A DNA stretch of 64,000 nt from Candidatus Bathyarchaeia archaeon (GTDB lineage: Archaea > Thermoproteota > Bathyarchaeia > 40CM-2-53-6), in assembly GCA_049517415.1 (NCBI GenBank), contig JBEKSC010000001.1, forward strand, positions 32,001 through 96,000. The letters are read 5' to 3'. The notes beneath the pieces are model-generated. The model did no database searches. It was not told the origin of the DNA and worked only from the letters and a program-made list of their open reading frames with translations. Position numbers and translations under genes: made by a program. Positions 1 through 18,490 of this stretch are shown here, one piece after another. Position 1 is the first letter of the stretch; each line of letters opens with the position of its first letter.

Positions 1-1
1 C

Positions 2-154
2 CGAACAGCCTCGTATCGAAACAAGGTCCTAGCTCGTTGCTGCGAGACGTGCAGCTACTACGACTCCAAGTCCGGGTGGGGCAGAGCTTGGTGGTGCAAG
101 AGACCATTCCAGTTCGAAGTTGCGCCCGCAACATGTTTTGAAGCGACGGTGTAG
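2..154 (+). CDS. Possible 3' end of a small Cys-rich protein (partial at window edge)
   Basis: Frame 2 is open from base 2 to TAG at 152-154: RTASYRNKVLARCCETCSYYDSKSGWGRAWWCKRPFQFEVAPATCFEATV, with CxxC plus further Cys. The start is outside the window. Confidence 0.3.
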   Translation, partial: RTASYRNKVLARCCETCSYYDSKSGWGRAWWCKRPFQFEVAPATCFEATV

Positions 155-548
155 CGGATCCCGATTCTGCTTTCCAAAAGTAGTGCTGTTTAGCTGTATT
201 AGTGCTCTAGCTCCATTACGAAACCGAATGCACTGGCTGGCAGAACCTGCGGCCCCCCGACGTCCAAGCACGCCTTTTCAAATTCGATGTTTTCCTAGAG
301 AAATGCGTCAAGCGAAACCAAGCGCTTCCGCATTGGAGAGTTTCTTATGGCCTGCGTGATGTCAACGCATTGCATGTGCTCCCCCCTCGCAGGCTATCTA
401 AGATGTAGAGAAGGTTTGATGTCGGGATTGCGTGAAGTTCAAAACGGACTGGTTTCGGATGTTAAACTGGAAGTTTGAACCGGCCCGACGGGTCTGGATC
501 CTAACACGCTCCAGTATTGGGCATTGGAAATTGGAATAGTTTCGAACG

Positions 549-557
549 CTTAAATAT
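549..557 (+). promoter_or_regulatory. Archaeal TATA box upstream of the aminotransferase
   Basis: CTTAAATAT lies ~25 nt upstream of ATG at 580, typical leaderless archaeal spacing. Confidence 0.5.
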
Positions 558-579
558 TCTGAGGGCACCAACTAAACTC

Positions 580-1947
580 ATGAATGCTCGACGCGAAACG
601 GTCACCGATGAGATTCTGAAGCAATATTATGCTCGATCTAAGAAGTCCCGTGCGTACTACGAACGCGCGTGCAAAGTTATTCCCAGCGGGAGCAATAGAG
701 GCGTAATTTTCTACCGTCCATACCCGGCGTACTCGAAGCGCGCTAAAGGCAGCCACATTTGGGACCAGAACAACGTTGAACGAATAGATTACTGCTTCAA
801 TTATAGCAGTCTTCTCCTGGGGCATTCTAACCCCGCAGTGATAAAGGCAATCAGGCAGGAGCTTGAGAATGGATTGGGAAGGGGGCAACCCACAACGGTT
901 GAGGTTGAACTCGCCGAGCAGGTCTGCAAGATGGTGCCAACGGCTGAAATGGTGAAGTTCACAGTCACGGGGACCGAGGCCGTGATGAACGCAATCAGGT
1001 CTGCTAGAGCGCACACGCGAAGAAACAAGATAATAGCCTTCGAAGGCGCCTATCACGGGTCAGCAGACGCCGTCTCAGTAGAGGGTCTCAATTTCAAGGC
1101 TGAAGGAATTCCAGTCGACGTGCAGAAAAACACCGTGGTTGTTCCGTTCAACGACACGGAGCGTCTGGAATCGACTCTGAAAGAGCACAAGGGAGATGTG
1201 GCGGCAGTCCTTTTGGAGCCGTTCCTGGGCGCAGGTGGTACGGTAGTACCGGACGAAAACTTCTCAAAGGCAGTGCGTGAAATCACAGAATCAATGGATG
1301 TAATGCTCATCCTCGACGAGATCGTAAGTGGTTTCCGAATAGCGAAAGGAGGGTGGCAGGAGAAGTATAGAATCAAGCCTGATCTGACAACTCTTGGAAA
1401 GAATGTTACGGGTGGGATGCCCGGCGGTGCGGTTTGCGGGGCGAAAGAGATAATGGAGGATGTTTATGCCTTCCCACCCTCTGATTCACTCGAAATGAAA
1501 TCTCCGAAAACTCCTCTTTCAGGTACCTTCACTGCCTTTCCGTTGAGCATGGCCGCAGGTCTAGCTACGCTCAAGATGCTGAAATCAGCGATCTATGAAC
1601 ACGTTGATTCTTTGGCTTCCACGCTTTCGAAGGAGTTTGTGAAGATAGGGTCCGACCTTGGTTTCGATGTCAGGGCTCCCACAAGCGGTTCGGTCTTTCA
1701 GTTCTATTTCAGCGGAAAGGACATCACGGACGTATGGGCCGTCAAGTCAGCAAATTCTGAACTCAGAAGGTATCTCGACCTTGGCCTCTTGAACAACGGG
1801 GTCTATCTAGCCCCTGGGCACTTCTGCTGCACTTCCTCCGCAACTTCAAGAGCAGACATTAAGCTGACCATAGCGGCGATGGAGAAAGTGCTTCGGTCGT
1901 TGAAACCCGTCGCGAAGGAAGCTCTAACGGCTACGGTCGCTAGATAG
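580..1947 (+). CDS. Class III PLP aminotransferase, glutamate-1-semialdehyde aminomutase (HemL)-like
   Basis: GTEAVMNAIRSAR, FEGAYHG, LILDEIVSGFR and PDLTTLGK (PLP Lys) motifs. Start moved to ATG 580 based on the TATA box. Confidence 0.85.
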   Translation: MNARRETVTDEILKQYYARSKKSRAYYERACKVIPSGSNRGVIFYRPYPAYSKRAKGSHIWDQNNVERIDYCFNYSSLLLGHSNPAVIKAIRQELENGLGRGQPTTVEVELAEQVCKMVPTAEMVKFTVTGTEAVMNAIRSARAHTRRNKIIAFEGAYHGSADAVSVEGLNFKAEGIPVDVQKNTVVVPFNDTERLESTLKEHKGDVAAVLLEPFLGAGGTVVPDENFSKAVREITESMDVMLILDEIVSGFRIAKGGWQEKYRIKPDLTTLGKNVTGGMPGGAVCGAKEIMEDVYAFPPSDSLEMKSPKTPLSGTFTAFPLSMAAGLATLKMLKSAIYEHVDSLASTLSKEFVKIGSDLGFDVRAPTSGSVFQFYFSGKDITDVWAVKSANSELRRYLDLGLLNNGVYLAPGHFCCTSSATSRADIKLTIAAMEKVLRSLKPVAKEALTATVAR

Positions 1948-2125
1948 CCAAGTCAGGACAAGTCAGGCAGGACACGACGAACGTGGCGACACGTCTAGCT
2001 CTTATTTTAGACTGATGCAGACTGGAGTCCCCATATCCTCTCGAACCATCGACTGACAACCAGACTGAAGTTGCGTTCTTGGTATCATTGAGTTACTACC
2101 CGCTGAAGTTCTCTGATTTGGATTC

Positions 2126-3136
2126 CTATGTACCGAAGGTATTAATCATCTGACTCATGTTTGGTGTTATTGGCAGGATAACTGGGTAGGAGGCACCCGC
2201 CTTGACATACGCCTGCACACCAGTTTTGCAATCCTCCGGAGTTCCCGAAACCGTCAGCATGTCTACAACCTTGTCATCCACGAGCTTCATCGCCGCCTTC
2301 GGCCCGTCTTTCGTCGGAGGCCACCCACCTAATGCCTTACCGACATCCTTGATGAGTTGTTCCTTCACCCCACTTGCAAGCCCGATGTGTGGTTGTTGGC
2401 CGAGATAAAGGGTCACCAAATATCTTGCGGCCTCCTTTGCCTTTTCCGCATCTTCGTCCATTGCGACACCGATGAGCTGTGGCCTATCAATCTCCGACAC
2501 CTTCTTGCCTGCCTTTTTGGCTCCCTTGCCAAGTGCATCCAAAGAAAGCTTCAGGTATGGGACCGAGGTGAAAGCATTGAGAAATACTCCGTCGGCTATT
2601 TCTCCCGTGAGCTCCATCATCTTGAGCCCTGTTGCCCCGATGTAGATAGGGACGTTTACAGGGTTCTTGGGTCTGCCGTATCCCAAGTCCAGTGCGATAT
2701 CTCTGACCTTCATCACCTTACCTTCGTAAGTGAACCTTTCGAGGTTGAACAGCCGTCGCATAATCCCCACGAACTCCCTCATCGCAGTGAGCGGCATCTT
2801 CCGCTCGATTCCTTGTTTCCACGCGAGAGGATCCCAGTAAGCACCTACTCCCAGTATGGCCCTCCCATGAGACAGTTCATCGAGGGTCGCAAATGTCATA
2901 GCCGTCAGAGAGGGGACTCTGGTCCAGATGTTTATGACTCCAGGAGCGAGTTTGACGCGTTTGGTTATTGGGGCGAAGGCACCCAAGACGGATATAGCGT
3001 CCCGAACCAGCCTAGTTTCGCACGCCCAAATCGAGTGAAAACCCTTCTGGTCAGCCAGTTTCGCAAGTTCAAGTTGTTCGTCGGTACCTGGTCTGTCAAG
3101 AAAACAGAGGCCAACCCGTTTGTCATCGGAAGACAT
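2126..3136 (-). CDS. Luciferase-like monooxygenase (LLM) family, probably F420-dependent oxidoreductase (Mer-like)
   Basis: GFHSIWACE, ATLDELSHGRAILGVG and PIYIGATGLKMMELTGEIADG motifs. TATA-like CTTATAT ~25 nt upstream. Confidence 0.85.
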   Translation of the reverse strand: MSSDDKRVGLCFLDRPGTDEQLELAKLADQKGFHSIWACETRLVRDAISVLGAFAPITKRVKLAPGVINIWTRVPSLTAMTFATLDELSHGRAILGVGAYWDPLAWKQGIERKMPLTAMREFVGIMRRLFNLERFTYEGKVMKVRDIALDLGYGRPKNPVNVPIYIGATGLKMMELTGEIADGVFLNAFTSVPYLKLSLDALGKGAKKAGKKVSEIDRPQLIGVAMDEDAEKAKEAARYLVTLYLGQQPHIGLASGVKEQLIKDVGKALGGWPPTKDGPKAAMKLVDDKVVDMLTVSGTPEDCKTGVQAYVKAGASYPVILPITPNMSQMINTFGT

Positions 3137-3292
3137 GTGCTACAGGCGGCCACTCAGAAGATATAAGCGTTTAATTTCAAGCGCGCTTGAATCCTTGGCT
3201 CAAATCAAATCGTCCATCATAACATCGTGAACAAAACCTTAATAGGACTTTTCGGAACTCAGAAGAATTACGAATTTCAAAGGGCGAGAATT

Positions 3293-4270
3293 ATGGATTT
3301 GAAAGGACGAGATTACATCTCTCTGAAGGACTATAACGAAGAAGAGCTCTACATGATTTTTGACACTGCTGCGGATCTAAAGAGAAAACTCAAACGTAAT
3401 GAACCTCACGAGTTGCTCAGAGGAAAAACGATGGCGATGATTTTTGATATGCCCTCCACCCGAACAAGAATCTCGATGGAGACGCTGATGACGCAACTTG
3501 GTGGTCATGCACAAATGATCACTTCGGAGCAGTACTGGACAACAAAGAAAGAATCTTTGGCCGACTCTGCCAAAGTTTTCAGTAGATATGTGAACGGCGT
3601 CTTCATTAGGACATTCGCATACAAGGACATAAAGGAATTCGCCGACTACGCGAGCGTACCTGTCATCAATGCCTATTGTGACATGGAACATCCCTGCCAA
3701 GTCGCGGCTGACATAATGACAACCAGGGAGAAGAAGGGTACTTTGAAGGGCAGAAAGACTACCATAGCTTGGGCTTTCTCCAATTTCAACAAATCGCTTG
3801 GAATCGTGAATTCGACACTCTATACCGCTCCAAAGCTCGGTATGGACCTAACAATAGCCTGTCCTGAAGGATACGAACCAGACGCAGAAGTTGTGGAGTA
3901 TGCGAAATCAGTAGCAAAAGAAACAGGAGCGCAAGTTGAGATAACATCAGACTTGAACGAGGCCGTCCGAGACGCTGATGTGATTCATATCAAAGGCTGG
4001 GCCCCGCACGAGATAATTCGAATGGGCCCGAAAGGAATCGATGCCATGTCTCCGCACAGGCAAAACCCTGGTAAATACAAGCAATGGGTAATCAAGCAAG
4101 AACACCTGGATTTGGCAAAGAAGGGAGTCAACATACAGCATGCTCTACCTGTTGAAAGAGGCGTCGAGGCTTTGGATGAAATCATGGACGGGCCGAATTC
4201 CGTAATCTTCGACGAAGCCGAGAACAGACTGCACTCCGCGAAAGGAGTGGTAGCACTCATTCTCGAATAG
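3293..4270 (+). CDS. Carbamoyltransferase of the ATCase/OTCase superfamily, knotted YgeW/AOTCase-like
   Basis: STRT, HPCQ, HALP and EAENRLH motifs present. The OTCase DxxxSMG motif is absent, replaced by IHIKGWAP, and there is an AWAFSNFNKSL loop as in YgeW/AOTCase-type enzymes. Confidence 0.8.
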   Translation: MDLKGRDYISLKDYNEEELYMIFDTAADLKRKLKRNEPHELLRGKTMAMIFDMPSTRTRISMETLMTQLGGHAQMITSEQYWTTKKESLADSAKVFSRYVNGVFIRTFAYKDIKEFADYASVPVINAYCDMEHPCQVAADIMTTREKKGTLKGRKTTIAWAFSNFNKSLGIVNSTLYTAPKLGMDLTIACPEGYEPDAEVVEYAKSVAKETGAQVEITSDLNEAVRDADVIHIKGWAPHEIIRMGPKGIDAMSPHRQNPGKYKQWVIKQEHLDLAKKGVNIQHALPVERGVEALDEIMDGPNSVIFDEAENRLHSAKGVVALILE

Positions 4271-4766
4271 AACCCGAATCATTGCCGTCCCTGCCCCCGC
4301 GAAAGTAGTTTCCCGGGGTCCCCATTCCACATTGTTCTCTATTCCTAAATTGCCCACCTTATTCGAAGTACCTCTCTTCTTTCGAGCGAGACTAACGCTG
4401 CCGAATCAATGGACAAGACTCTGGCTGTATCGACCAAGACGAAGCGGGCTCAGGCGACAGGACGAGTCCTTAGCTGGCGACGATTCTACAAATTGTGGGT
4501 TAGCCTGAACCTTTTCGTCAGCCTCAGCAGATGCTTCGTTTGACTGGTCGTGGATCGCCTGCGCCGCTATTTGAGACAAGAGCCTCCTTGACGAAACACA
4601 CTTCATCTTACTCATTATTTTCTCATCCTCGACAGAGTATATGGCACCATCGCAGCTGTCAATGTCATTCGTTGAACAGCCCTAACAATAGAAAGTCGCC
4701 ATCATCCATAGAAAATCGCCACGTGAGAGCCCTATTGGAACGGATAGGACACTCCAAATAAGTACT

Positions 4767-4785
4767 CGAAGCGACCGGCGCTTCG
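4767..4785. terminator. Short perfect hairpin downstream of hydA
   Basis: CGAAGCG-accgg-CGCTTCG inverted repeat ~20 nt past the hydA stop. Confidence 0.3.
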
Positions 4786-4806
4786 GCGATACCCTGCTAT
4801 CGCGGT

Positions 4807-6189
4807 TTACAAGTCGGGCCGACCCGAAACAAAGGGGACGCCCTTGACGAATTGTCCCCTACCCTTCTTGCCACTGAACTGGCCGTTTTCAGCGATGACA
4901 TCACCTCGTGAGATCGTCATGACAGGATACCCGGTTACGGTGACGTCCTCGTAAATCGAGTAGTCAATATTACTGTGTAGATTGTCCGCCGAAAGTCTTA
5001 CTTTCTTTTGGGGATCGAATATTATGATGTCAGCGTCGCTGCCCACTGCGATGGTTCCTTTTCTTGGGTAAAGGCCATACATCTTTGCAGCATTAGAGGA
5101 CCCTACCTGTACCAATCGATTGAGAGAAAAGATATTCTTTCCAATGCCCTGAGAATAGAGTATGGGTAGAATCTGCTCTGTACCGGGAACACCATTCGGA
5201 ACCTTGTCGAAGCCATGCTGATTCTTCTGCTCCAAAGTGAATACCGCGTGATCACTGCCGACTGTTTGAATAGAACCATTTGCCAAACCTTGCCATAACT
5301 TTGCGCTGTCCTCTTCACTTCTAAGTGGTGGCGACATGATGTACCGATTCCCATCGGGTCTCCTTAGTGCCTCATCCGTAAAGGTAAGGTAATGCGGACA
5401 GGTTTCTGAGTAGATGGGAACGCCTCTAGTCTGAGCCTCTTTGATTTCGTTTACGGCTAGACCTGTCGATACGTGGACTATGTATAAGGGAGAATGTGCC
5501 ATCTCAGCCAGCCGGATACCTCGCTGAACCGCCTCTGCCTCAGCCAATGATGGCCTCGACTTTGCATGATACTCCGGGTCAATCTTACCTTCACTCAGAT
5601 ATCGAGCCACGAGACAATCAATGACTTCGCCGTTCTCAGCATGTAGACCAACTAAACTTCCGTTCTTTACGGCTTCTTCCATGACTCTGAATATTGATCC
5701 ATCATTCATGGAAAATGCCCCCTTATACGCCATGAAAACCTTCAAACTCACAACCCCCTCCGCTGTTAACGCGCCAACTTGGCTGAGATTAGTGGGATTG
5801 AAGTCTCTGAAAATCATATGAAGACCATAATCAATGGTTACCTTGGGATCAGCTTTCATGCGCCATGTCTTGTACGCATCCAGCAGAGTATCGCCCTTGG
5901 ATGGAGTGGCAAAATCAACGATTGTAGTTACGCCCCCACATGCAGCGGCCACCGTGCCATGATAGAAATCATCAATCGTTTCCGTTCCCATGAATGGCAT
6001 TTCCATATGTGTATGACCATCGATGAATCCCGGAAAGACCAACTTTCCTTGGGCATTTATCACCCTGCTGGCGGACTCCTTGCTCGACTTTGAGACTTCG
6101 ACTACTTTTCCATCTTTTATTCCGATTTCTCCTTCGAACGTATCTGATCCCGTAACAATCTTTCCATTTCTTATTATCAAGTCTAGCAT
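4807..6189 (-). CDS. hydA: Dihydropyrimidinase / D-hydantoinase
   Basis: PGFIDGHTH, GGVTT, SLKVFMAY (carboxylated Lys), HAEN, VHVS, ETCPHYL, MSPPLR and SDH motifs. Confidence 0.9.
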   Translation of the reverse strand: MLDLIIRNGKIVTGSDTFEGEIGIKDGKVVEVSKSSKESASRVINAQGKLVFPGFIDGHTHMEMPFMGTETIDDFYHGTVAAACGGVTTIVDFATPSKGDTLLDAYKTWRMKADPKVTIDYGLHMIFRDFNPTNLSQVGALTAEGVVSLKVFMAYKGAFSMNDGSIFRVMEEAVKNGSLVGLHAENGEVIDCLVARYLSEGKIDPEYHAKSRPSLAEAEAVQRGIRLAEMAHSPLYIVHVSTGLAVNEIKEAQTRGVPIYSETCPHYLTFTDEALRRPDGNRYIMSPPLRSEEDSAKLWQGLANGSIQTVGSDHAVFTLEQKNQHGFDKVPNGVPGTEQILPILYSQGIGKNIFSLNRLVQVGSSNAAKMYGLYPRKGTIAVGSDADIIIFDPQKKVRLSADNLHSNIDYSIYEDVTVTGYPVMTISRGDVIAENGQFSGKKGRGQFVKGVPFVSGRPDL

Positions 6190-6511
6190 TGATGACGCCG
6201 TCTCAACTTAGCAGAGTCCTTAATTATTAATGGTTTCTCGAGCGATTCTCAAGCGGCCCGCACTGTTAGCCAATAGGATGCTGACGATGGTTTTCCAAAA
6301 GCCTTCTCTGCTTACGAGAGGTTCATTTGAAGCCGGTATGGCTCAACTTGGCGAGGGTGCATGACGTTAAAGGCATACCCCAATGACGCGGCGGACATAA
6401 TCTTTGGCGAGGATCCAAAAGATCATGTAGTTGTCCTCTGCAGTACGGCCGACATGATTACTGCCCTGGGCAGCTAGGAGCCCCGGGTTCCTAGGCTAGG
6501 CCGCGTAACCC

Positions 6512-6979
6512 TCAAAATTGCTTTAGGATGTCTTCTCTTTCCATGATGTGACCGCAGAAAGAGCATCCTAATCTAATGGGTTCTCGTTGAGTCACGCCAA
6601 ACTGTGGTTGAACGGGTTCCCTCGAATTTGAGATACAAGAGGGGTTGTCGCATTTCAGAATGCCCCGAATTGTAGACGGGAGTTCAACGTTTTTCTTAGT
6701 CGTGACTTCATAGTTCCGAATTATGTTGATCGTGGCCTTTGAAGCAATTAGGGCGATCTTGTTCACTTCTGCTGGCTTAAGTTCCCTATCCTGAATCTTT
6801 ACGATGTCTTTGTGACCAAGTCCTTTGCTGTCAACATTCATTGCTGCAGTTACAGCCCCTCCTGCCTTTCCGTTGATGCCGAGAATTTTCAATACGTCAA
6901 GAGCGAAACCAGGCGTTATGTGATCGATGACTGTTCCATCCCTGATCTTGCTAACGTAAAGTTCTTGTCGTGTCTCCAA
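6512..6979 (-). CDS. pyrI: Aspartate carbamoyltransferase regulatory subunit
   Basis: GTVIDHI, KDIVK, and Zn ligands C-DNPS-C and CSFC. Confidence 0.95.
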   Translation of the reverse strand: METRQELYVSKIRDGTVIDHITPGFALDVLKILGINGKAGGAVTAAMNVDSKGLGHKDIVKIQDRELKPAEVNKIALIASKATINIIRNYEVTTKKNVELPSTIRGILKCDNPSCISNSREPVQPQFGVTQREPIRLGCSFCGHIMEREDILKQF

Positions 6980-7050
6980 AGCGGCTCAATCAAGCGATGA
7001 CGCCGACAATTATTTAAGCATGAAAATCAACAAGACGCGGGCGTATTGAA

Positions 7051-7971
7051 GTGCAGTTTGCCGGAAGAGATATCGTATCGATCAAAGATTTCTCGCGGGA
7101 AGAGATCGACCACATTCTGAAGATGACAGATGTCGTCGAGCCGATGGCGAAAACAGGTTCGCATGCGCTTGACGGCAAAATTATGGCTACGCTGTTCTTC
7201 GAGCCCAGCACTCGAACTCGTCTCAGCTTCGAATCTGCAATGTATCGTTACGGCGGCAAATGCTTAGGTTTCGCTGAACCTAAAGTTGCATCAGTTGAAA
7301 AAGGAGAGAACTTGGCGGATACCGTCCGTACCGTAGAGAGCTATGCAGATATTCTTGTCATTCGTCACCCTCTGGAAGGCGCGGCACGTCTAGCTGCCGA
7401 GTTTGCCTCCGTCCCAGTCATCAACGCCGGAACGGGAGCTGAAGAACATCCGACTCAGGCTATGCTTGACCTCTACACGATGCGAAAGGAAACGGGAAAG
7501 CTAGATGGGTTGAATGTCGCACTCGCCGGCGATCTCAGGTACGGGCGGACCGTTCACTCACTAGCATATGCGCTTTCGCTATATGACATCAACCTCTACT
7601 TGATTTCACCACCTCTGCTAAGGATGAGAAAGGAGGTGTTGGAAGAGGTCAAAGATCGAATCAAGATCCAGGAGCTTGAGGATCTATCCAAAGTAATCCC
7701 GCAAGTTGATGTTCTCTACATGACACGGATTCAGAAGGAACGTTTTGGTTCCTTGGAGGACTACGAAAAGGTTCGCGGATCCTACAAACTTGCCGCGGGC
7801 GACCTAAGCACAGCAAAGCCCGGAATGATTCTCATGCATCCGTTGCCTCGAGTTGACGAAATCGCATACGACGTCGACGCCACTCCTCACTCCAAATACT
7901 TCAAACAGGTCTTCTATGGACTTCTGGTGAGGATGGCTTTAATCGGGCTTGTTCTCGGCGCCTTGAGTTAA
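7051..7971 (+). CDS. pyrB: Aspartate carbamoyltransferase catalytic subunit
   Basis: FFEPSTRTRLSF, HPTQ, GDLRYGRTVHSL, TRIQKER and HPLPR motifs. Confidence 0.97.
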   Translation: MQFAGRDIVSIKDFSREEIDHILKMTDVVEPMAKTGSHALDGKIMATLFFEPSTRTRLSFESAMYRYGGKCLGFAEPKVASVEKGENLADTVRTVESYADILVIRHPLEGAARLAAEFASVPVINAGTGAEEHPTQAMLDLYTMRKETGKLDGLNVALAGDLRYGRTVHSLAYALSLYDINLYLISPPLLRMRKEVLEEVKDRIKIQELEDLSKVIPQVDVLYMTRIQKERFGSLEDYEKVRGSYKLAAGDLSTAKPGMILMHPLPRVDEIAYDVDATPHSKYFKQVFYGLLVRMALIGLVLGALS

Positions 7972-8142
7972 ACGGAGTCGCAACCGCGGGCACCGATTGT
8001 AATATTCGCGATCAGATTTGCAGTAATCCTTCCTTGAGGACGTAACCAGCATAGGGCTGGCGCAAAACTTGACTGCCATGTTGGAAGATGCAGAAGCCGC
8101 AAGTTATTTCTAGAAGATGCAATAATTGCTTAGGGTTCTGAA

Positions 8143-8604
8143 ATGGAGCATATCGAAGATAGGAAAGCCCATCAAGGTTTCATGAAGGTAGCCATCGAGG
8201 AAGCAAAGCTCGGAATGCATGAGGGGGGCGTTCCAATTGGGTCCGTCCTTGTACGGAACGGAAAGATCATTGGACAGGGACACAACAGACACATACAGGA
8301 GCGAGACCCAACCTCGCACGCAGAAATCGATTGTCTTCGCAAGGCAGGAAGAATAGGTAGCTATAGCGACACAACAATCTACTCCACATTGATGCCTTGC
8401 TACCTCTGTTCAGGAGCAGTCGTCCAATTTGGAATAAGCAAGGTAGTTGTGGGAGAATCGGCGACTTTTCCCGGAGGTGAGGAGTTAATGGTAAGCCATG
8501 GCGTTCAGGTAATCAACCTAAACCTCGATGAATGCAAAGAAATCATGAAGCAGTTCATAGAGAAATATCCGAAGCTATGGGATGAGGATATAGGGAAACT
8601 CTGA
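8143..8604 (+). CDS. Cytosine/creatinine (nucleoside) deaminase, fungal Fcy1-type fold
   Basis: EGGVPIG, HAE, PCYLC Zn motif and C-terminal WDEDIG. Confidence 0.85.
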   Translation: MEHIEDRKAHQGFMKVAIEEAKLGMHEGGVPIGSVLVRNGKIIGQGHNRHIQERDPTSHAEIDCLRKAGRIGSYSDTTIYSTLMPCYLCSGAVVQFGISKVVVGESATFPGGEELMVSHGVQVINLNLDECKEIMKQFIEKYPKLWDEDIGKL

Positions 8605-8641
8605 CGGCTTCGTTGCCTGGTTACTGAATCTGACATGACTT

Positions 8642-9733
8642 TTATCTCAGAGGATCCGCCTTTACTTTTTCTAATCCTTTCTCGAGTCTGAGCAGCTCAT
8701 CTGACGCTATCTTTTCCTGCCAATCCTTCAATTCTCCGATCTCTAGCAGACTTTTCATTAATCGTATACTGTTTTCTAGGTGGCCAGCTATGTCACCTTC
8801 TTCATAACCCAGGCCGTTGAAGAGTCTACTTTGACGCGCGGACCAATCACCGGGTTGATCCGACCCGGGAACAAATTCATGTAGATATTCCACAAATGTG
8901 ACTCTATCGACCAAGGCGCCGAGTTTGCTGATCGAATGATCCCTTCGCCAAAGCCATTCGTCTACCCCGTATAGTGGCATGTCGTAATTGTTGGCGCAGA
9001 GAGCGGTTAGATTGCCGATTGCAAATGCTACTAATGGAATACCGTGGCTTCGCGCAATTTTGTCGAGCAGCTTGAGTCCTTCTAGAGCGATGAATCCATA
9101 GAGAATCCACTTGGAGATATGCGAGCCGACTTCTTCGCAATGATTAATGGCGGCTCTGATGCTGACTTCGGCTGACCTACTGCTTGCCACTGTATCTTGC
9201 ATTATCAAGAAAACCTCGCTGTTTGCGGGAAGTTCCGCAAAATCTTCGTAAACTATGTCAAGTTGTCGGTGAACTATGCCGTCGTGATCTCGATAAGATG
9301 TGTGAGTGTAGCGAGGCCTAATGTTGACGGTTCTATAGTTGCCTGGTATTACTCGACTCGCTGCCTGATGCAGGTTGTACCCGGGAGCGGCTCGGAGTAT
9401 TTGTTCAAATACTATTGCGCCCTCCTTAGCGGTATTGATTTGTGATAGTTCGAGAATTGCAGGAAGACTCTGTTCTGCAGCCTCTAGTGTGAGTTTTTCA
9501 AGTTCATCCCCGACCACATGTGGGTGGCAAGCGATTCTTCGGGTCATAGGAGTGTCGATGATGAAGGCATTCAATGAGGAGCTTTGAACTTCAAAGACTC
9601 TAGTCTGCGGATTAAGATTTGTTTTAGTTAGCTTAGCGGGTCTTGTAGCGTCGACATTGACGCCGTATTCCTGAATTATGGAATCCACTAGGTTTGTTTC
9701 AAGTTCTTCCAATTGCTCCATCTCGGAAAACAA
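8642..9733 (-). CDS. Hypothetical protein, atypical type I phosphoribosyltransferase (UPRT-like)
   Basis: ILRA (cf. UPRT ILRAG) and a hydrophobic strand plus D-loop VFLIMQDTVASSRS resembling the PRPP-binding motif. Confidence 0.55.
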   Translation of the reverse strand: MFSEMEQLEELETNLVDSIIQEYGVNVDATRPAKLTKTNLNPQTRVFEVQSSSLNAFIIDTPMTRRIACHPHVVGDELEKLTLEAAEQSLPAILELSQINTAKEGAIVFEQILRAAPGYNLHQAASRVIPGNYRTVNIRPRYTHTSYRDHDGIVHRQLDIVYEDFAELPANSEVFLIMQDTVASSRSAEVSIRAAINHCEEVGSHISKWILYGFIALEGLKLLDKIARSHGIPLVAFAIGNLTALCANNYDMPLYGVDEWLWRRDHSISKLGALVDRVTFVEYLHEFVPGSDQPGDWSARQSRLFNGLGYEEGDIAGHLENSIRLMKSLLEIGELKDWQEKIASDELLRLEKGLEKVKADPLR

Positions 9734-9869
9734 GGTTCCAAGATAGGCGATGGCTCATTGAAATAATTACCCACCAGCATTCAGGAACAAATCATAACGG
9801 AATTCTCAAGCCGCAGAAACTAACCTTGGCTTAATGTTAAATACTATAAGACGAGCATCATTCGAGACT

Positions 9870-11423
9870 ATGGCTTCCAAGTCGTCACCTGGGAAAGCCC
9901 CAGTCTTCGTTAGGGATGCAACCGGACTCCGGAAGAACGTCAGTCTATTGGATGCTATATCAATCAACGTAAGTGACATGTCTGCGGGCGCTGCACTTGC
10001 GAATATTGGTTTTACCACGATCCTGTTGCCCACCATGGCTGGTGTGAACCTCGTCTTAGGCTCACTCATAGCGTTCGTGCTCATCGTGCCGCAAGTCATC
10101 ATCTACACAATGATGACAAGACGGATGCCACGCACTGGGGGAGACTACGTTTGGGTCTCTAGGTCGATGGGGGGTTTTCTCGGGAATGTCTTGGCCTTGA
10201 GCGGTTACACTATGGGAAACATTCCATTCGCAGCGCTCATCGCGTTATCCGCAGTGTTCGCGATTGGATCAGTTGGCGTTTCATTAGGTTACCAGAATAT
10301 GCTTAGTTTAGCACTTCCAGGAAACATGCAAGGCGCAGCTCCGGCTTCACAGTTCCTCCTGGCCAGCGTGATTTTGATCGTACTCTTCGCGATTAACATC
10401 GTCAGACCGAAAATCGCATACAAGTTGATCTCGATCTTTACGGTGATCGGAATCGTCTCTATGTTGGTGGCCGTTTTCGTTCTCGTGTCAAGTGGGACCA
10501 ATGGCGCTGTCAACTACGTGAATTCTCTTGGCAATTCCACATTGACTTTTCAGGGCATCGCGAGGAGCTATACAGGGCCGTCTTTCGATTGGGCTGCAAC
10601 TCTCATGTTCGTGCCGTACTTTGCTTTCTTCACCTACCCATGGGTTAACGCTGCACCTGCGGTGGCCTCCGAGATCAAAGGAAAAAGCGCGTTGAAATGG
10701 AATGTCGCGGTTTCCGCGGTTGTTGTTATGCTATTGGTTACAGGAGCGTTTGGATCCATGTACTACGCAGGTGGAATGGCGTTCGTTAACGCAGCCTTGG
10801 CCAACCCAACTATGGTGTATAACTACTCGTTCAACTTTTGGACGTTCGCAATGGGTGCTACAACGAATCCGATTCTGTCATGGATAATCGGAATTGGTTG
10901 GATCCTTTGGATCATCAACATTCTCGCGTACCTTGTGGTTGTAGAAGGCAGATATCTCATGGCGCAAGCGTTTGACAGGTTTTTGCCTTCAATGGTTGCG
11001 TACGTTAGCAAGTATGGCTCGCCCGTCGTCGCCCACCTTATCGATCTGGTGATAACGATTGCACTCGTCGCGGGCGCGTCATTTCTCTACGGTACTTTTG
11101 TCTCACTATACGGAACGATAGTTGGCCCCATGATATACTTCGCCTTCGTTGGTGTTGCCGCTGTGATATTTGCGGTTAGGAATGAGAAGGGAGCTCCGAA
11201 AGTAATCCTAGCGATTGTAGGAGTTCTTTCCGCTGGGGTCTTCCTCTGGTTGACTGCGGAGTTCCTTCTCTACTGGACTATCTGGGGAGGCAACTGGCTG
11301 GCCTACGGATTTATTGCTGGAACAGCGATCGTCGGTGCCGTCATCTACGTTACATCAAAGATGTACCACGCGCGCAGAGGGCTTGACATTTCACTGGTGT
11401 ACAAGCAGTTACCGCCCGAGTAG
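9870..11423 (+). CDS. APC-family amino acid/polyamine permease
   Basis: FVRDATGLRK N-terminus, MPRTGGDYVWVSR and ~12-14 hydrophobic segments. TATA-like TTAAATA/TATAA upstream of ATG 9870. Confidence 0.9.
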   Translation: MASKSSPGKAPVFVRDATGLRKNVSLLDAISINVSDMSAGAALANIGFTTILLPTMAGVNLVLGSLIAFVLIVPQVIIYTMMTRRMPRTGGDYVWVSRSMGGFLGNVLALSGYTMGNIPFAALIALSAVFAIGSVGVSLGYQNMLSLALPGNMQGAAPASQFLLASVILIVLFAINIVRPKIAYKLISIFTVIGIVSMLVAVFVLVSSGTNGAVNYVNSLGNSTLTFQGIARSYTGPSFDWAATLMFVPYFAFFTYPWVNAAPAVASEIKGKSALKWNVAVSAVVVMLLVTGAFGSMYYAGGMAFVNAALANPTMVYNYSFNFWTFAMGATTNPILSWIIGIGWILWIINILAYLVVVEGRYLMAQAFDRFLPSMVAYVSKYGSPVVAHLIDLVITIALVAGASFLYGTFVSLYGTIVGPMIYFAFVGVAAVIFAVRNEKGAPKVILAIVGVLSAGVFLWLTAEFLLYWTIWGGNWLAYGFIAGTAIVGAVIYVTSKMYHARRGLDISLVYKQLPPE

Positions 11424-11597
11424 CAGCACCTCTCCTGCTAACCAACGGTCATGTCAGGTGACGGCTTGGACCATCTTGCGCATTCGTTACTCCGACCGAA
11501 GTGCGGCAAGAAAATTCGTTAGATTACACTCTATTCAAGAGAGGAAGAACTTTCTAGCTCTCAATTACGAAGTCATTGACTTTGCGGTCCTTCCAAA

Positions 11598-11754
11598 ATG
11601 CCCAGTGAGAAACTATTACTTTTGGACCTCGGTTGCTTGGGTGGAGACATAGGCTAGTTCTCACCGGGGTGGCTCAGGAGGTGCTGCGGCAAACAAGAAC
11701 CGAAACCCATCTGTGACTTGGATGGAGATCCCAGCTGTGGTAGAAGTATCCTAA
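11598..11754 (+). pseudogene. Remnant of the N-terminus of a probable MBL-fold (AHL-lactonase-like) hydrolase
   Basis: ATG 11598: MPSEKLLLLDLGCLGGDIG*F, then after a frameshift GGSGGAAANKNRNPSVTWMEIPA. Resembles N-termini of archaeal lactonase-family proteins, recognised from memory only. Confidence 0.35.
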
Positions 11755-11901
11755 GGCTCTAAAGACAATAGAATAGCGGCGTGCTGTGCGTGAGGATCTT
11801 CCACACCATCCAACATACATTGAGTTAGTCGTAGTCGTATGAAAGACTCACTTGGGCATGTCGACGGGACGAAACCAATGTCCCAGTTTTATTCATCGGT
11901 G

Positions 11902-12288
11902 TCAATATGGTTTCGGACCCGAAGAAGGAAATATGTTATCCACTTGAGCGTAGTAGAAAATGACGTCCACGTATCCCCCCGGATCATATTCAAAGACATG
12001 CCATTCAAGTTCCGGAGTGTGCAATGTCATACCCTTCCGAAGGGGTAGCCGCGGTCCCAACTTGTCCGGACTTGGCCCATAGCGCACATAGCCGTCCTTA
12101 GCGTCAATAACGTGGACGACTTCTTCGGCATGCTGGTGAGGCTGCATCGGTCCGCTTTCTTCACTGTAACGCGCAAATCCAGCTGTCATCTTCTCGCTTC
12201 GCGAAACACCAGTCTTGCCAACCACATGCTGGACCACTCTGCCAGGGAGCATTTCCTTCTTCAGAGTATCGCGCGGCATCAATTTCAT
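11902..12288 (-). CDS. Cupin-domain protein
   Basis: PHQHAEEV (motif 1) and TPELEWH (motif 2) metal-binding cupin signature. Confidence 0.75.
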   Translation of the reverse strand: MKLMPRDTLKKEMLPGRVVQHVVGKTGVSRSEKMTAGFARYSEESGPMQPHQHAEEVVHVIDAKDGYVRYGPSPDKLGPRLPLRKGMTLHTPELEWHVFEYDPGGYVDVIFYYAQVDNIFPSSGPKPY

Positions 12289-12538
12289 CCTAATGCGCCG
12301 TTTCGGGATGAGTCTACAAGATAAACATAAATCTTAAGCGTGATTCCCTTAAGTCGAAGAGAGCTGTCCCTTTCTACAGTCAGTCAGTGAAGCATACAAA
12401 AGAGTTTGCGAAACACGAAGCGATGCTGAGCTGCCCCCTACTCCGGAAATAGATTCTTTTCTCCAAGTTGCCTACATTTTCCAGAATTGTCAAAACTCAA
12501 ATAATCGAAACGTCCATTGATGGATATCGTGATATGTT

Positions 12539-13915
12539 ATGGGCAGTTTCTTTACAATTAACCCTGCAACAAGTGAGAGAATACGAGAATACAAAACGAT
12601 CGGAGAGGGAGAAGCTCGCGCCTTCGCAAAAGAAGCGAATCTAGCCTTTGAAAGGTGGAGGGAAACCGAGATCTCTCAGAGATCAGAGCTGTTATTGAAT
12701 CTCGCGAAAGTACTGAGAGATAACAAGACTGAGTATGCAAGAGCAATGACGGTGGAGATGGGAAAGCCGATAAAGCAGTCGCTTTCTGAGGTTGAGAAAT
12801 GCGCTTGGAGTGCTGAGGTTATAGCGAAGAATGGAGGGGAGTGGTTACGAGATGAACCCGGTGAGACTGATGCATACAGGAGCATTGTTGCGTTTGAACC
12901 ATTGGGCACGATACTCGGAGTGATGCCTTGGAATTTTCCGTTCTGGCAGGCATTAAGGTTCGCTATGCCAGCTGTCCTAGCTGGGAACACAACCATGTTG
13001 AGGCACTCAAACGTTGTTCCTCAATGCGCTCTGTTGATAGAGGAAGCATTCACGAAAGCGGGTTTTCCAGACAATGTGTTCAAGACTGTGGTAACCGAAC
13101 ATTCTGTCGTTGACTCGCTCATTGGAAGTGAGTACATAAGGGGCGTTTCATTTACGGGCAGCACAGATGCCGGACGGCATATCGCAGTGTTGGCTGCCCA
13201 GAATCTGAAGAAATGCGTCTTAGAACTCGGGGGAAGTGACCCCCTAATAGTCCTAGAAGACGCCAGACTCGATAAGGCAGCAAGCATCGCAGCTGAATCG
13301 AGGTTGGTCAACTCTGGCCAAAGCTGCATTAACGCGAAACGGTTCATAGTTGTCAAAGGAGTATACGACGAATTCAAAGAGATGCTGGTCACAAGTGTGA
13401 AGAAACTTGTCGTGGGAGACCCTCAGGATGAGAAGACAGACGTCGGCCCTCTGGTCAGAGAAGACTCTCTGAAGCTCGTCGAGTCGCAGGTTAAGGATGC
13501 GATAAAAAGAGGCGGGCGGGTTCTAATCGGCGGTAGAAGACTAGCGAGACAGGGATATTTCTACGAGCCAACTATCATCGATAACGTTGGGAGAGACGCA
13601 CGGATTGTGAAGGAAGAAGTATTCGGACCCGTTGCACCGATCATAATGGCACGTACCGAGGAAGAAGCAATCAGATTTGCGAATGAAACGGTATTTGGTT
13701 TGGCTGGAAGCCTGTGGACCGAAGACTTAGAGAGAGCTTCAAGGGCCGCCAAGAAGATCGAATCGGGAGTCGTGTTCGTTAACGGACTAGTGAAATCGGA
13801 TCCACGGATGCCGTTTGGTGGAGTAAAGCAGTCAGGCCTTGGAAGGGAACTTTCAAAATACGGGATAAGAGAATTCGTCAACACTAAAGGCATCAATGTA
13901 TACAGGACGACCTAA
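12539..13915 (+). CDS. gabD: NAD(P)-dependent aldehyde dehydrogenase, succinate-semialdehyde dehydrogenase (GabD/Sad) type
   Basis: MPWNFPFWQ, FTGS, LELGGSDP, NSGQSC, EEVFGP and PFGGVKQSG motifs. Confidence 0.88.
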   Translation: MGSFFTINPATSERIREYKTIGEGEARAFAKEANLAFERWRETEISQRSELLLNLAKVLRDNKTEYARAMTVEMGKPIKQSLSEVEKCAWSAEVIAKNGGEWLRDEPGETDAYRSIVAFEPLGTILGVMPWNFPFWQALRFAMPAVLAGNTTMLRHSNVVPQCALLIEEAFTKAGFPDNVFKTVVTEHSVVDSLIGSEYIRGVSFTGSTDAGRHIAVLAAQNLKKCVLELGGSDPLIVLEDARLDKAASIAAESRLVNSGQSCINAKRFIVVKGVYDEFKEMLVTSVKKLVVGDPQDEKTDVGPLVREDSLKLVESQVKDAIKRGGRVLIGGRRLARQGYFYEPTIIDNVGRDARIVKEEVFGPVAPIIMARTEEEAIRFANETVFGLAGSLWTEDLERASRAAKKIESGVVFVNGLVKSDPRMPFGGVKQSGLGRELSKYGIREFVNTKGINVYRTT

Positions 13916-14776: not shown

Positions 14777-15742
14777 TTGGAGACTGTTTCTTCTAAGGTA
14801 CTCCTTCTCAAGATGTACGAGAGCATGGTCATGCAGAGAATGTTTGAGGAAGAAGTGGCGGAACTCTACAAGAAAGGCAGAATTCCTGGGCTTGCACACC
14901 CGTATATTGGCCAAGAGGCCGTAGCAACAGGTGTATGTATGACCTTGGAAAAAAACGACCTTGTAGTTAGCAATCACAGAGGGCATGGCCACAGTCTCGC
15001 CAAAGGCGTTCCTGCTCGTTCCATCTTTAGCGAACTCATGGGCAAGGACTCCGGAATGTGCTTGGGCATCGGCGGTTCGATGCACAGCACAGATGTAGAT
15101 GCTGGATTGGTTTTCTCCACTGCAATTGTCGGTGGTGGGATACCCTTGTCCGTAGGTGTCGCTTTGGCTCTAAAGATGGGTAAGAAAGCAAATTGTGTAG
15201 TCTGTTTCTTCGGAGATGGTGCGAGCAATACAGGAGCTTTTCATGAAGCAGTGAATCTGGCAGCTGCTTGGAAACTCCCCGTGGTCTTTGTTTGTGAGAA
15301 CAACCAATACGCTATTTCAGTTCCGGTTTGCAAGTCAACATCAGCGCGCATCGCCGAAAGGGGCAAGTCGTATGGTATTCCTGGAATTCTTGTGGATGGC
15401 ATGAATGTGTTGGATGTTTACGCTGCAGCATCGGAGGTTGTTAGCGGAGCAAGGATAGGGAAAGGCCCAGCTTTGATGGAATGCGAAACCTACCGATACA
15501 AAGGTCATGGAATGTATGATACTGGATTTGACTATAGGACGAAGGAAGAAGTCGATGAGTGGATGGCACGTGATCCGATTCAAAACCTTGAACGAAAGCT
15601 GATCAGCGACAAGCTCGCTACAAATGAGGAGCTGGAAACGATTGGCCGTAGGATCAAGTCTGAGCTTGAAGAAGCTGTGAGGTTCGCCAATGAGAGACCA
15701 TATCCACCTGTCGACCTGCTGCCAAAATTCGTGTGGGGCTAG
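14777..15742 (+). CDS. acoA: TPP-dependent pyruvate/acetoin dehydrogenase E1 alpha subunit
   Basis: GQEA, HRGHGH, GGSMH, TPP motif FGDGA..x..CENN and TYRYKGH. Confidence 0.85.
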   Translation: METVSSKVLLLKMYESMVMQRMFEEEVAELYKKGRIPGLAHPYIGQEAVATGVCMTLEKNDLVVSNHRGHGHSLAKGVPARSIFSELMGKDSGMCLGIGGSMHSTDVDAGLVFSTAIVGGGIPLSVGVALALKMGKKANCVVCFFGDGASNTGAFHEAVNLAAAWKLPVVFVCENNQYAISVPVCKSTSARIAERGKSYGIPGILVDGMNVLDVYAAASEVVSGARIGKGPALMECETYRYKGHGMYDTGFDYRTKEEVDEWMARDPIQNLERKLISDKLATNEELETIGRRIKSELEEAVRFANERPYPPVDLLPKFVWG

Positions 15743-15759
15743 CTGGTGAGGATTTGAAG

Positions 15760-16725
15760 ATGCTAACATTTGTCGAAGCCGTCCGCGAGGCGTTGACCGA
15801 GGAAATGCGCCGTGATGAAAAAGTGTTCGTCATGGGAGAAGACGTGGGCAAGTTTGGCGGTGTTTTCAAGGTAACCAAAGGCCTGCTAGAAGAATTTGGA
15901 CCAGAACGTGTTAGAGACACACCGCTCTCTGAGAATGCGATAGTTGGCGCGGCGGTTGGGGCCGCGCTTATGGGCTATCGTCCCGTTGCAGAAGTAATGT
16001 ACATGGACTTTCTGAACGAATGCGCGGACCAGCTTGTCAATCATTTGCCGAAGCTCCACTTCATGACGGGAGGAAAACTAACGGCGCCTGTTGTCATCAG
16101 GACGCAGTATAGTCTAGGACGAAACACAGGAGCACAGCATTCTCAGTGCTTTCCAGCTTTCTACATGAATACCCCTGGGTTGATGCTGGCTATGCCCTCG
16201 ACACCCGCTGATGCGAAAGGCCTTCTCAAGACGGCCATTCGAGGAAACAATCCCGTTCTCTTCGTGGAATCTGCCATTCTGTATAGCAGCAAAGGAGAAG
16301 TCCCCGAAGACGAGTTTCTAATTCCGTTCGGGTGTGCAGATATCAAGCGACAAGGAGAAGATGTAACCCTAGTTGCAATATCCAGGTTGGTGGGAGAGGC
16401 CTTGGCGGCTGCCGATGCTCTGGCATCCGAAGGAATTAGTGTCGAAGTCGTTGATCCGCGGACGCTTGTTCCTCTCGACGCTAACACCATCATATCTTCT
16501 GTGAGGAAGACCGGACGCCTAGTTACCGCGGAAGATAGTTGCAGGACATCCGGAGTGGGCGCTGAGATCTTAGCCCGGGTTATGGAAAACGCCATGGATT
16601 ACCTAGAGGGAGTAGGACGTGTAGCATGCCCTGACATACCAGCACCATTCAGTCCACCTCTTCAGAGCGCCTACATGCCGACAAGAAACACGATAATTAG
16701 CACGATAAAGAGCATTATGTCATGA
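15760..16725 (+). CDS. acoB: Pyruvate/acetoin dehydrogenase E1 beta subunit
   Basis: MGEDVG..GGVF, DTPLSE, AQHSQ, DAKGLL and EVVDPRTLVPLD motifs. GGTGAGG SD upstream. Confidence 0.88.
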   Translation: MLTFVEAVREALTEEMRRDEKVFVMGEDVGKFGGVFKVTKGLLEEFGPERVRDTPLSENAIVGAAVGAALMGYRPVAEVMYMDFLNECADQLVNHLPKLHFMTGGKLTAPVVIRTQYSLGRNTGAQHSQCFPAFYMNTPGLMLAMPSTPADAKGLLKTAIRGNNPVLFVESAILYSSKGEVPEDEFLIPFGCADIKRQGEDVTLVAISRLVGEALAAADALASEGISVEVVDPRTLVPLDANTIISSVRKTGRLVTAEDSCRTSGVGAEILARVMENAMDYLEGVGRVACPDIPAPFSPPLQSAYMPTRNTIISTIKSIMS

Positions 16726-16739
16726 ACATACGATCTAAT

Positions 16740-17927: not shown

Positions 17928-17965
17928 TCCCTCCCCATCAATAGTGCGACGGCAATAGTCGGAAT

Positions 17966-18490
17966 TTAATGTATTGTACTATACGCCACATTCGAGAAGA
18001 GCGACGACTGGACAACGGCACCATATCTAAATTTCGACCCATGAAATCTCGCTGAAAACAAAGCCGGCACAAATGAATTGAGGCAGGAAAATGACCAATA
18101 GCCGGTTGTTACTTCAAGCATCTCAGAAGAATGAGTAAGGGATTCGATCGTTGTCTCCGCTAGGTGAGACGTAAAAATCACATTGTATAATTTGGTCAAA
18201 ATGCGGTTCTTGTCTAATGGTCCATCCCAGAAGCAATCAAGGACCGCACCGGAAATTCTCTCTTCTCTAAGGGCTTTGCAAAGAGCATTCTCGTCGATTA
18301 GTCCTGCTTTCGCCGCGTCGATCAGGTAGCTGGTCAGCTTCATTAGGGAGATTAGCTTCTCTCCGATGATGCCTTCTGTTTCCTTGGTCAACCCGGAATG
18401 AATGCAGACGTAAACTGACTCTTGGAAGAGCCCTTCGATGGACGTTGGTTCAGCCTTGATCATTCCGTCTCCAATTATCGCAATCTTCAC
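17966..18490 (-). pseudogene. Internally deleted, degenerate D-2-hydroxyacid (SerA-like) dehydrogenase
   Basis: N-terminal MKIAIIGD is joined directly to C-terminal motifs. These are decayed: LIDAAKAGLIDE (cf. INTARG), GAVLDCF, and FTSHLA (cf. TPHIA). The GxGxxG region is missing. Confidence 0.75.

Follow-up and report, generated by a model that had tools for sequence, protein, structure and literature searches.

The window analysed here, a 64,000-nucleotide stretch of the genome (G000) of a Candidatus Bathyarchaeia archaeon (G000:C1:32001-96000; the assembly measures 2.65 Mb, with completeness of 100% and contamination of 6.86%), covers just the right half of an island of ~27 kb for nucleobase catabolism. 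We consider it probable, at roughly 0.6, that the island runs a variant of the reductive pyrimidine pathway in which uracil and thymine are handled by an F420-type luciferase-like monooxygenase (LLM) and by a phosphorolytic carbamoyltransferase, CT_up, together with carbamate kinase. The genes for these enzymes lie upstream of the window. The original prediction, made from the window alone, had proposed a route of this kind for the genes at 580-13915, with the window's own LLM (LLM_w) and carbamoyltransferase (CT_w) in the key positions. The genes that it listed are all real and lie where it had placed them; the cupin call is weak and one gene, for a 363-aa protein, had been passed over. Our argument draws on which genes are present or absent, on their family scores and neighbourhoods, and on trees; every activity, cofactor, reaction direction and co-expression is predicted from these.

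In the proposed route, a BMP-type ABC system would import the substrate, the window deaminase would convert cytosine to uracil, and the upstream LLM, a member of family TIGR03842, would reduce uracil or thymine with F420H2 to the dihydropyrimidine. The dihydropyrimidinase of the window, HydA, would open the ring, and CT_up would split beta-ureidopropionate with phosphate into beta-alanine and carbamoyl phosphate, which the upstream carbamate kinase would use with ADP to form ATP. Beta-alanine would then pass through malonate semialdehyde to acetyl-CoA by a PRK06062-type aminotransferase and a CoA-acylating methylmalonate-semialdehyde dehydrogenase (MMSDH), with propionyl-CoA as the corresponding product from thymine.

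The genome's single TIGR02033-level HydA, cytosine deaminase, intact pyrB, carbamate kinase and TIGR03842 LLM all fall within 22 kb. This clustering of pyrimidine genes is beyond chance, which a back-of-envelope (44/2647)^4, with genes picked after the fact, puts at ~1e-7. The window genes that score over curated cut-offs are HydA, pyrB and pyrI. In a quick tree the window HydA groups with the enzymes of archaeal family f27 and of genomes G230 and G456/457 (SH-aLRT 91), apart from E. coli HyuA, and a close HydA occurs in only 1 of 22 congeners. The deaminase gives 132.8 bits to the yeast-type cytosine deaminase, against 81.5 for the next family. Bases 1..579 of the window form the intergenic gap between its genes and the upstream half of the island, in which the carbamate kinase is found 6.4 kb ahead of window base 1. 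As stated earlier, PreAT, PydC and carbamate kinase were not seen among the open reading frames (ORFs) of the window, but this is an edge effect. The upstream stretch (L008:6420-20000) is present in one piece in contigs of runs X14 and X8 that continue past its end, and all four runs examined break near its left edge. Runs X14 and X8 may themselves be the source of the assembled DNA; continuity over the left edge of the window is taken from the assembly, from the contigs that reach past the end of the upstream stretch and from the clusters of CT_w and CT_up having contigs of equal length. No tRNA was found near the island, and its GC and third-position GC (GC3) are not distinctive.

The proposed reductase and ureido-cleaving enzyme

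No PreA was found in G000: neither the f27 PreA nor a PreA-like protein of genome G047 gave a tblastn match at 1e-8, and the one full DHO_dh domain of the genome, on contig C4, is taken as PyrD. We compared eight TIGR03842-related loci, five from 15 plasmid records (a set in which ten Leisingera plasmids resemble one another and were represented by one) and all three archaeal loci. HydA and a PydC-type hydrolase lie near the LLM in six of the eight (Leisingera, two Streptomyces and archaea G456-458), the hydrolase being an M20 enzyme in Leisingera and a nitrilase in the Streptomyces and archaeal loci, and PreA or PreT occurs in none. An aminotransferase, 63% identical to the upstream one of G000, and an MMSDH (47%) adjoin the LLM in G457 and G458. 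In Leisingera and Paracoccus the LLM gene directly follows cofG-cofH-cofD-cofC-cofE-npdG, which is good circumstantial support for an F420 enzyme. G000 itself encodes CofE twice over the cut-off, a CofD-like protein (44%), an NpdG-like protein (36%) and, beside cofD, what we take by eye to be CofC. The family is rare, with members in 1 of 401 genomes of the phylum (at most five candidates scored per genome) and in 3 of 61 around G457. That an F420-type LLM takes the place of PreAT, as originally proposed, is thus supported as a design, but the comparisons point to the upstream TIGR03842 member and not to LLM_w as the gene.

A similar exchange is predicted for the ureido-cleaving position. Orthologues of CT_up, 64-70% identical, are present in 13 of the 32 f27 genomes and in G230, and the nearest named proteins come from Methanomethylicales and Verstraetearchaeota. 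The gene order is PreT-PreA-HydA-CT in 12 of the 13 f27 loci, and the thirteenth contig begins at the carbamoyltransferase (CT); PreA is over its cut-off in both copies scored (543 and 532 vs 335). Carbamate kinase lies at most 4 kb from the carbamoyltransferase in eight of these loci; of the five remaining contigs, four stop shortly afterwards. In G230 the order is HydA-CT-X-CK, where CK is carbamate kinase. No nitrilase, M20 or SsnA gene occurs in any of the 13 f27 loci; in the five f27 genomes searched whole, M20 hydantase and SsnA were each found in 0/5 and a nitrilase-family gene was absent from two (92-93% complete). Conversely, none of the three TIGR03842 archaea G456-458, which have the nitrilase, carries a CT_up match above 35% identity. 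Downstream of their CT_up orthologues, f27 and G230 have a Cys-rich 103-aa ORF with no Pfam match (L133:10649-10960), which was not seen after CT_up in G000.

G000 has no M20 PydC (best TIGR01879 score, 28 bits) and no orthologue of the pyd-cluster nitrilase; three CN-hydrolases are encoded elsewhere, the best at 33%. The possibility that a canonical PydA/PydC set elsewhere in the genome does the work, raised with the original prediction, was borne out by no PreA, M20 PydC or cluster-nitrilase orthologue, although the three CN-hydrolases may have PydC activity. A phosphorolytic carbamoyltransferase in place of ureidopropionase is supported as a design, with CT_up and not CT_w as the more likely gene.

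G000 encodes six OTCace-family proteins, namely PyrB, a true ornithine carbamoyltransferase (OTC) on contig C42 (427.1 bits), CT_up, CT_w and a divergent pair, CT_A/CT_B. In a 74-row carbamoyltransferase tree, in which PyrB and YgeW have long branches and rows for N-acetylornithine carbamoyltransferase (AOTC) and putrescine carbamoyltransferase were left out, f27 and G230 proteins form an 11-row clade that is the sister group of CT_up (100/100). The surrounding YgeW superclade (96/100) contains CT_up, CT_A, CT_B and the C. novyi enzyme of the YgeW slot. By eye, CT_up matches the YgeW motifs, with a proline-rich loop WANGPGAWKPLSVPQ, a long 120s loop and the 240s-loop lysine in YPKGW. Shi et al. 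(PMC4581275) describe these three features as marks of the knotted transcarbamylases, of which CT_up, with its kinase neighbour, is a putative member. CT_up is shorter than YgeW (334 vs 396 aa), belongs to another subclade and falls below the YgeW model NF005538 (202.6/453). Its structural model (pLDDT 92.9) retrieved P. furiosus OTC first and AOTC structures in 10 of ranks 2-12; for CT_up and CT_w alike, fold searches returned the family fold and not the substrate. The island kinase is 62-64% identical to the f27/G230 kinases vs 49% to the kinase of the genus, and thus it probably came with CT_up.

Three further carbamoyltransferase loci were recorded. G382 encodes a 652-aa protein (L140:5149-7107) with a carbamoyltransferase in its C-terminal half and a carbamate kinase nearby. 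The Pusillibacter plasmid NZ_AP023421.1 (L169) has preA, amidohydrolase, carbamoyltransferase, larA-like, permease, nitrilase and arcC genes together, its carbamoyltransferase grouping with that of G039. In NZ_CP029459.1 (L168) a purine cluster (xdh, dpaL, hydA, ygeY) has in its YgeW slot a short carbamoyltransferase that is named OTC.

Several observations weigh against assigning the island to pyrimidines in this way. Its pathway genes are spread over 22 kb on mixed strands, with the TIGR03842 LLM 17 kb away from HydA, and among the genomes examined that LLM and CT_up occur together only in G000. In two of the eight TIGR03842-like loci, those of Paracoccus and Rhodococcus, the stretch compared contains no pyd genes. 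The sister of the window HydA is the G002 enzyme (53%), which is located in a purine cluster, and the wider CT_up family extends to purine enzymes of the YgeW slot (50% identity). The f27 loci, being kin, amount to about a single event. Three of the five f27 genomes, like G000, carry nitrilases elsewhere that are 27-33% identical to the pyd-cluster nitrilase and are possible PydC enzymes; in the three f27 genomes the figure is 29-33% for five of six loci. Lastly, the FO synthase CofG/CofH was not found in G000, so F420 would need scavenged FO or genes on a missing contig. On its own account, the co-occurrence of many LLM paralogues with CofE, CofD-like and NpdG-like proteins in a genome where CofG/CofH was not found points to possible FO scavenging.

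Island-borne pyrBI and the possible supply of carbamoyl phosphate

In 12 of 12 congeners examined, pyrI-pyrB sits at a housekeeping locus whose equivalent in G000 is on contig C49, and in none of the 12 is it beside catabolic genes. Contig C49 keeps pyrI (95% to G014), and all that is left of pyrB there is a remnant of 42 codons containing a stop (G000:C49:6784-6969), about 0.9 kb of the native gene having been lost relative to G014 (93% DNA identity). A second loss of about 0.9 kb relative to G014, at about 162.28 kb on G000:C1, removed the native carbamate kinase from between CT_B and CT_A. The window PyrI is 78% identical to the native-locus PyrI on C49 and only 75-81% identical to those of ten congeners, indicating that pyrBI is cargo of the island. 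The only intact pyrB and the only carbamate kinase of the assembly are thus on the island, which suggests that the island is functional.

CarB was not found in G000. Only 7 of 22 congeners have it, several of those in which it is missing being 98-100% complete, and carbamate kinase is present in 20 of the 22; the lack of CarB is therefore a trait of the genus and not a product of the island. Reuse of carbamoyl phosphate by the adjacent PyrBI, part of the original proposal, is plausible in a genome where CarB was not found, and carbamoyl phosphate from thymine, from purines or from the kinase running in reverse could feed PyrB. For uracil the idea fails: taking its carbamoyl phosphate into UMP is a futile loop, and we rejected such recycling as the purpose of the island. 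The most direct fate is the kinase, with formation of ATP.

The window paralogues and competing readings of the island

The genes of both halves are collected in Table 1. The 363-aa protein has no Pfam or NCBIfam match and its gene is convergent with that of the cytosine deaminase; an Atlas uracil phosphoribosyltransferase (UPRTase) cluster at 0.79 is a weak lead to a UPRTase-like fold, possibly for salvage. The window cupin and the f27 cupin are 21% identical and are not orthologues. Further along, 2-oxoacid dehydrogenase E1/E1/E2 genes and an acetoacetate-CoA ligase gene (14777-20590) are listed together with a span (57938-61636) that holds a CoxLSM-type molybdenum hydroxylase.

Table 1. Genes of the island in order along the contig. 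Positions without a contig name are those of the window; paired scores are bits/cut-off.
Feature	Position	Strand	Basis or remark
TIGR03842 LLM, F420-type	G000:C1:18614-19672	-	TIGR03842 347.7/295.45
Lrp regulator, CxxCxxCC and rubrerythrin-like genes	G000:C1, between upstream LLM and MMSDH
CoA-acylating MMSDH	G000:C1:21299-22789	-	555.8/448.5
PRK06062-type aminotransferase	G000:C1:22987-24330	-	PRK06062 432.8/472
Carbamate kinase	G000:C1:24597-25622	-	NF009007 277.6/266; TIGR00746 349.9/358.25
BMP-type ABC importer	G000:C1:25753-30769
CT_up, second carbamoyltransferase, 334 aa	G000:C1:30913-31917	+	last base 83 bases before window base 1
AT3, class III aminotransferase, HemL/GSA-like	580-1947	+	NF000818 370/398, TIGR00713 361/527 (under cut-offs)
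LLM_w, Mer-like LLM, not TIGR03842	2126-3136	-	TIGR03842 72.5/295.45
CT_w, non-OTC carbamoyltransferase	3227-4270, likely start 3293	+	rare clade, motifs, tree
Dihydropyrimidinase HydA/PydB	4807-6189	-	TIGR02033 529.8/393.25
pyrI, second copy, island-borne	6512-6979	-	TIGR00240
pyrB	7051-7971	+	TIGR00670 389.5/236.95
Cytosine deaminase, yeast Fcy1-like	8143-8604	+	best PDB match yeast-type cytosine deaminase, 132.8 bits
363-aa protein, archaeal family without name	8642-9733	-	missing from the earlier gene list
APC-family permease	9834-11423	+	54% paralogue in purine island
Small cupin-like protein, weak call	11902-12288	-	Cupin_2 E 0.071
SSADH-like aldehyde dehydrogenase	12539-13915	+	NF006915 513.8/730 (under cut-off)

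A separate, genus-wide purine-type island lies at G000:C1:161-198 kb, with genes for a xanthine dehydrogenase (Xdh), an LLM (LLM_C1b), adenine deaminase, a BMP ABC importer, SsnA-like, CysK-like and ThrC-like proteins, CT_B and CT_A; a list that includes the congener loci adds the carbamate kinase between CT_B and CT_A, of which the G000 copy was lost. Its two carbamoyltransferases may strip both ureido groups. At G000:C30:7012-11090 are SsnA-like, HydA/allantoinase-like and small nucleotidyltransferase-like genes that may supply ring opening for that island. Two congeners, G018 and G021 (L022:8261-19886, L023), have a creatininase (TIGR04448 over cut-off), an LLM, a carbamoyltransferase and three APC permeases together, possibly a separate creatinine-linked route.

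CT_w retains the STRT, HPCQ and HALP motifs and lacks SMG, with HIKGWAPHE where OTC has DVWVSMG. It has neither the proline loop nor the long 120s loop, keeps the lysine of the 240s loop and has Tyr at the Glu position. It scores over TIGR00658 (293.3/280.85, vs 427.1 for the C42 OTC) and under the AOTC model NF003384 (204.7/288), and its model (pLDDT 95.1) is nearest to unknotted OTC (1a1s, TM 0.91). In the tree it falls in a separate 21-row clade (99/92), outside both the OTC and the YgeW groups. CT_w was rejected as the arginine OTC on account of the C42 enzyme, the missing SMG loop and its place outside the OTC clade, which bears out the original view that it is not an arginine enzyme, and as an AOTC on account of the model score, the missing loop prolines, the short 120s loop and the Tyr in place of the conserved Glu. 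The protein is rare, in 3 of 371 genomes of the class including G000 (E<=1e-78). Its closest homologues are 57-84% identical, and a scan of genome contigs for their context found none; a metagenome scan with generic motifs (80 loci, 1/64 parts) gave mostly OTCs, and a search of the phylum gave 26 other genomes at 320-363 bits, a score that CT_up of G000 itself also attains (341). A 43-46% match in G039 was rejected as an orthologue, since it falls in another clade. The one genome-placed member of the clade, in G047, has a UacX-like gene (203/335 on PreA) and an SsnA-like gene as neighbours. The labels UacX-like, RutR-like and Fcy1-like are presumptive, recognised by eye and not family calls.

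LLM_w is 28% identical to the upstream TIGR03842 LLM and 52% identical to LLM_C1b. Homologues of LLM_C1b are present in 20 of 22 congeners, with xanthine-dehydrogenase-like, adenine deaminase and SsnA-like genes as neighbours in the loci compared, and extra copies of this type in G002 and G036 adjoin Xdh, SsnA-like and HydA-like genes. LLM_w and CT_w are rare paralogues with purine-type neighbours and probably serve a different ring compound, CT_w being predicted to be catabolic. Not quite an even bet, in our judgement, is the more specific proposal that LLM_w, CT_w and AT3 form a second module of reductase and ureido-phosphorolysis, which would act on a purine-type or substituted ring and draw on the same HydA and kinase.

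The reading closest to the original one, in which the window's own LLM_w, HydA, CT_w, AT3 and aldehyde dehydrogenase (ALDH) run the uracil/thymine route, or CT_w serves as a thymine-branch enzyme beside CT_up, is unlikely. LLM_w and CT_w are divergently transcribed neighbours that directly adjoin HydA, CT_w is not an OTC, and beta-transaminases appear among the lower PDB matches of AT3. However, LLM_w fails TIGR03842 and belongs with the purine-island LLM, the clade of CT_w points to UacX-like and SsnA-like neighbours through G047, and f27 does with a single carbamoyltransferase. The best PDB matches of AT3 are glutamate-1-semialdehyde (GSA) aminomutases, so this HemL/GSA-like protein was rejected as PydD and is probably not the beta-alanine aminotransferase. 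ALDH resembles succinate-semialdehyde dehydrogenase (SSADH); it was rejected as a malonate-semialdehyde dehydrogenase (MSDH), the CoA-acylating MMSDH being upstream, and is probably not the enzyme of that step. Among the loci compared, none has a full-length match of at least 38% to AT3 or ALDH. Both had been put forward as pathway steps, for which the upstream pair is now favoured; the best PDB match of the upstream aminotransferase is taurine:2-oxoglutarate aminotransferase. The trio of window LLM, carbamoyltransferase and HydA, whose conserved co-localisation had been expected, is together in no other genome examined.

It is also improbable that the island is mainly an accessory to reductive purine breakdown (2,8-dioxopurine-type), with the LLMs reducing yanthine-like rings, HydA acting as HyuA and the carbamoyltransferases stripping diureidopropionate. 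An F420 luciferase-family yanthine reductase is proposed by Li et al. 2025 (PMC12507026), the LLM_w homologues of G002 and G036 keep company with Xdh, SsnA-like and HydA genes, and CT_up is within the YgeW superclade. Against this, no SsnA or Xdh gene is in the island; the cytosine deaminase, MMSDH, beta-alanine-type aminotransferase, TIGR03842 LLM and pyrBI all indicate pyrimidines; HydA groups apart from HyuA; the sister clade of CT_up sits in SsnA-free PreTA operons; and G000 already has CT_A, CT_B and LLM_C1b in its purine island.

Still harder to sustain is the view that the genes arrived separately and share no pathway, in which case the adjacency of pyrBI would be accidental and CT_w a divergent OTC or AOTC. 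The mixed strands, the housekeeping position of pyrBI in the congeners, the TIGR00658 score of CT_w and its OTC-like fold are what such a history would leave, but the set is complete step by step with both missing slots filled, the native kinase and pyrB are lost, and CT_w lacks the SMG loop, fails the AOTC model and coexists with the true OTC on C42. Hydantoinases and cytosine deaminases can be promiscuous, and a creatininase-LLM-carbamoyltransferase cluster exists in two congeners, yet the creatinine line once suggested, in which the deaminase would give N-methylhydantoin, HydA N-carbamoylsarcosine, and CT_w sarcosine and carbamoyl phosphate, is highly improbable: that cluster has a different carbamoyltransferase clade and is not this island, the deaminase is of the yeast Fcy1 type, such a route does not call for a reductase, the island has no recognised gene for the use of sarcosine, and a full-text literature search found no paper combining all elements of the line.

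Returning to the pyrimidine route by way of the upstream LLM and CT_up, we put forward a broader picture only tentatively. Both predicted enzymes together would make an ATP-yielding pyrimidine fermentation; the island would have replaced the host kinase and pyrB; ureide phosphorolysis and the kinase would supply all carbamoyl phosphate for UMP in the absence of CarB; and the window LLM and CT_w would form a third module of reductase and phosphorolysis, as yet undescribed, that acts on some other nucleobase-like ring.

Relation to known systems

In the textbook view, pyrimidine breakdown is hydrolytic, employs flavin/Fe-S reductases and gives no ATP at the substrate level. The exchanges seen in the gene neighbourhoods above point to specific, clonable genes for F420-linked uracil reduction and beta-ureidopropionate phosphorolysis. 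If the proposal is true, it gives a function to the TIGR03842 family in Actinobacteria, Rhodobacterales and archaea, extends the energy metabolism of uncultured archaea to the fermentation of nucleobases, shows how a lineage mostly without CarB may get carbamoyl phosphate, and corrects proteins now named 'ornithine carbamoyltransferase'. A full-text literature search, which takes in few subscription journals and no supplements (those of PMC12507026 and PMC4016543 may show such variants), returned no F420-dependent uracil reductase, no TIGR03842 protein in pyrimidine breakdown and no beta-ureidopropionate carbamoyltransferase. The upstream LLM is a member of TIGR03842 (F420_CPS_4043), LLM_w is not, and no demonstrated function for the family was found in the literature searched.

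The Pyd pathway consists of PydA/PreTA/PydAc, PydB, PydC, PydD and MSDH (PMC7332683), an account that in the passages compared mentions neither F420 nor a carbamoyltransferase. The island shares with it a dihydropyrimidinase, a putative beta-alanine-type aminotransferase, a malonate-semialdehyde dehydrogenase, a nucleobase importer and the same order of chemistry (PMC7332683). It differs in having no flavin/Fe-S dehydrogenase or ureidopropionase; in their place are the TIGR03842 LLM and the carbamoyltransferase with its kinase, for which use of F420H2 and formation of ATP are predicted.

YgeW and YqeA make ATP from 2,3-diureidopropionate, with YgeW cutting the 3-ureido group in the Liu preprint (bioRxiv 10.1101/2025.04.24.650524) and the 2-ureido group in Li et al. 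(PMC12507026). The 3-ureido bond is the equivalent of the bond in beta-ureidopropionate and so offers a chemical precedent for CT_up. The logic of reducing and opening the ring, phosphorolysing a ureido group and gaining ATP by carbamate kinase is the same, CT_up belongs to the YgeW superclade, and an F420 luciferase-family reductase has already been proposed for Chloroflexota purine clusters (PMC12507026). Unlike the purine pathway, the island has a pyrimidine context without SsnA, Xdh, YgeY or YgeX. In G000 the purine genes are elsewhere, SsnA-like on C30, Xdh-like at C1:190-198 kb and C1:90-92 kb and YgeY at 26-29%, and YgeX has no match in the genome.

The closest parallel to the exchange of enzymes is the ureidoglycine carbamoyltransferase (UGTCase) of Rubrobacter xylanophilus, where a carbamoyltransferase and a carbamate kinase likewise replace an amidohydrolase after a cyclic amidohydrolase (PMC4016543). 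UGTCase is a pseudo-ATCase acting on allantoate, unlike CT_up and CT_w, which are on the OTC/YgeW side. Barba et al. (PMC4016543) set out the logic of this swap, with carbamoyl-beta-alanine among the substrates compared.

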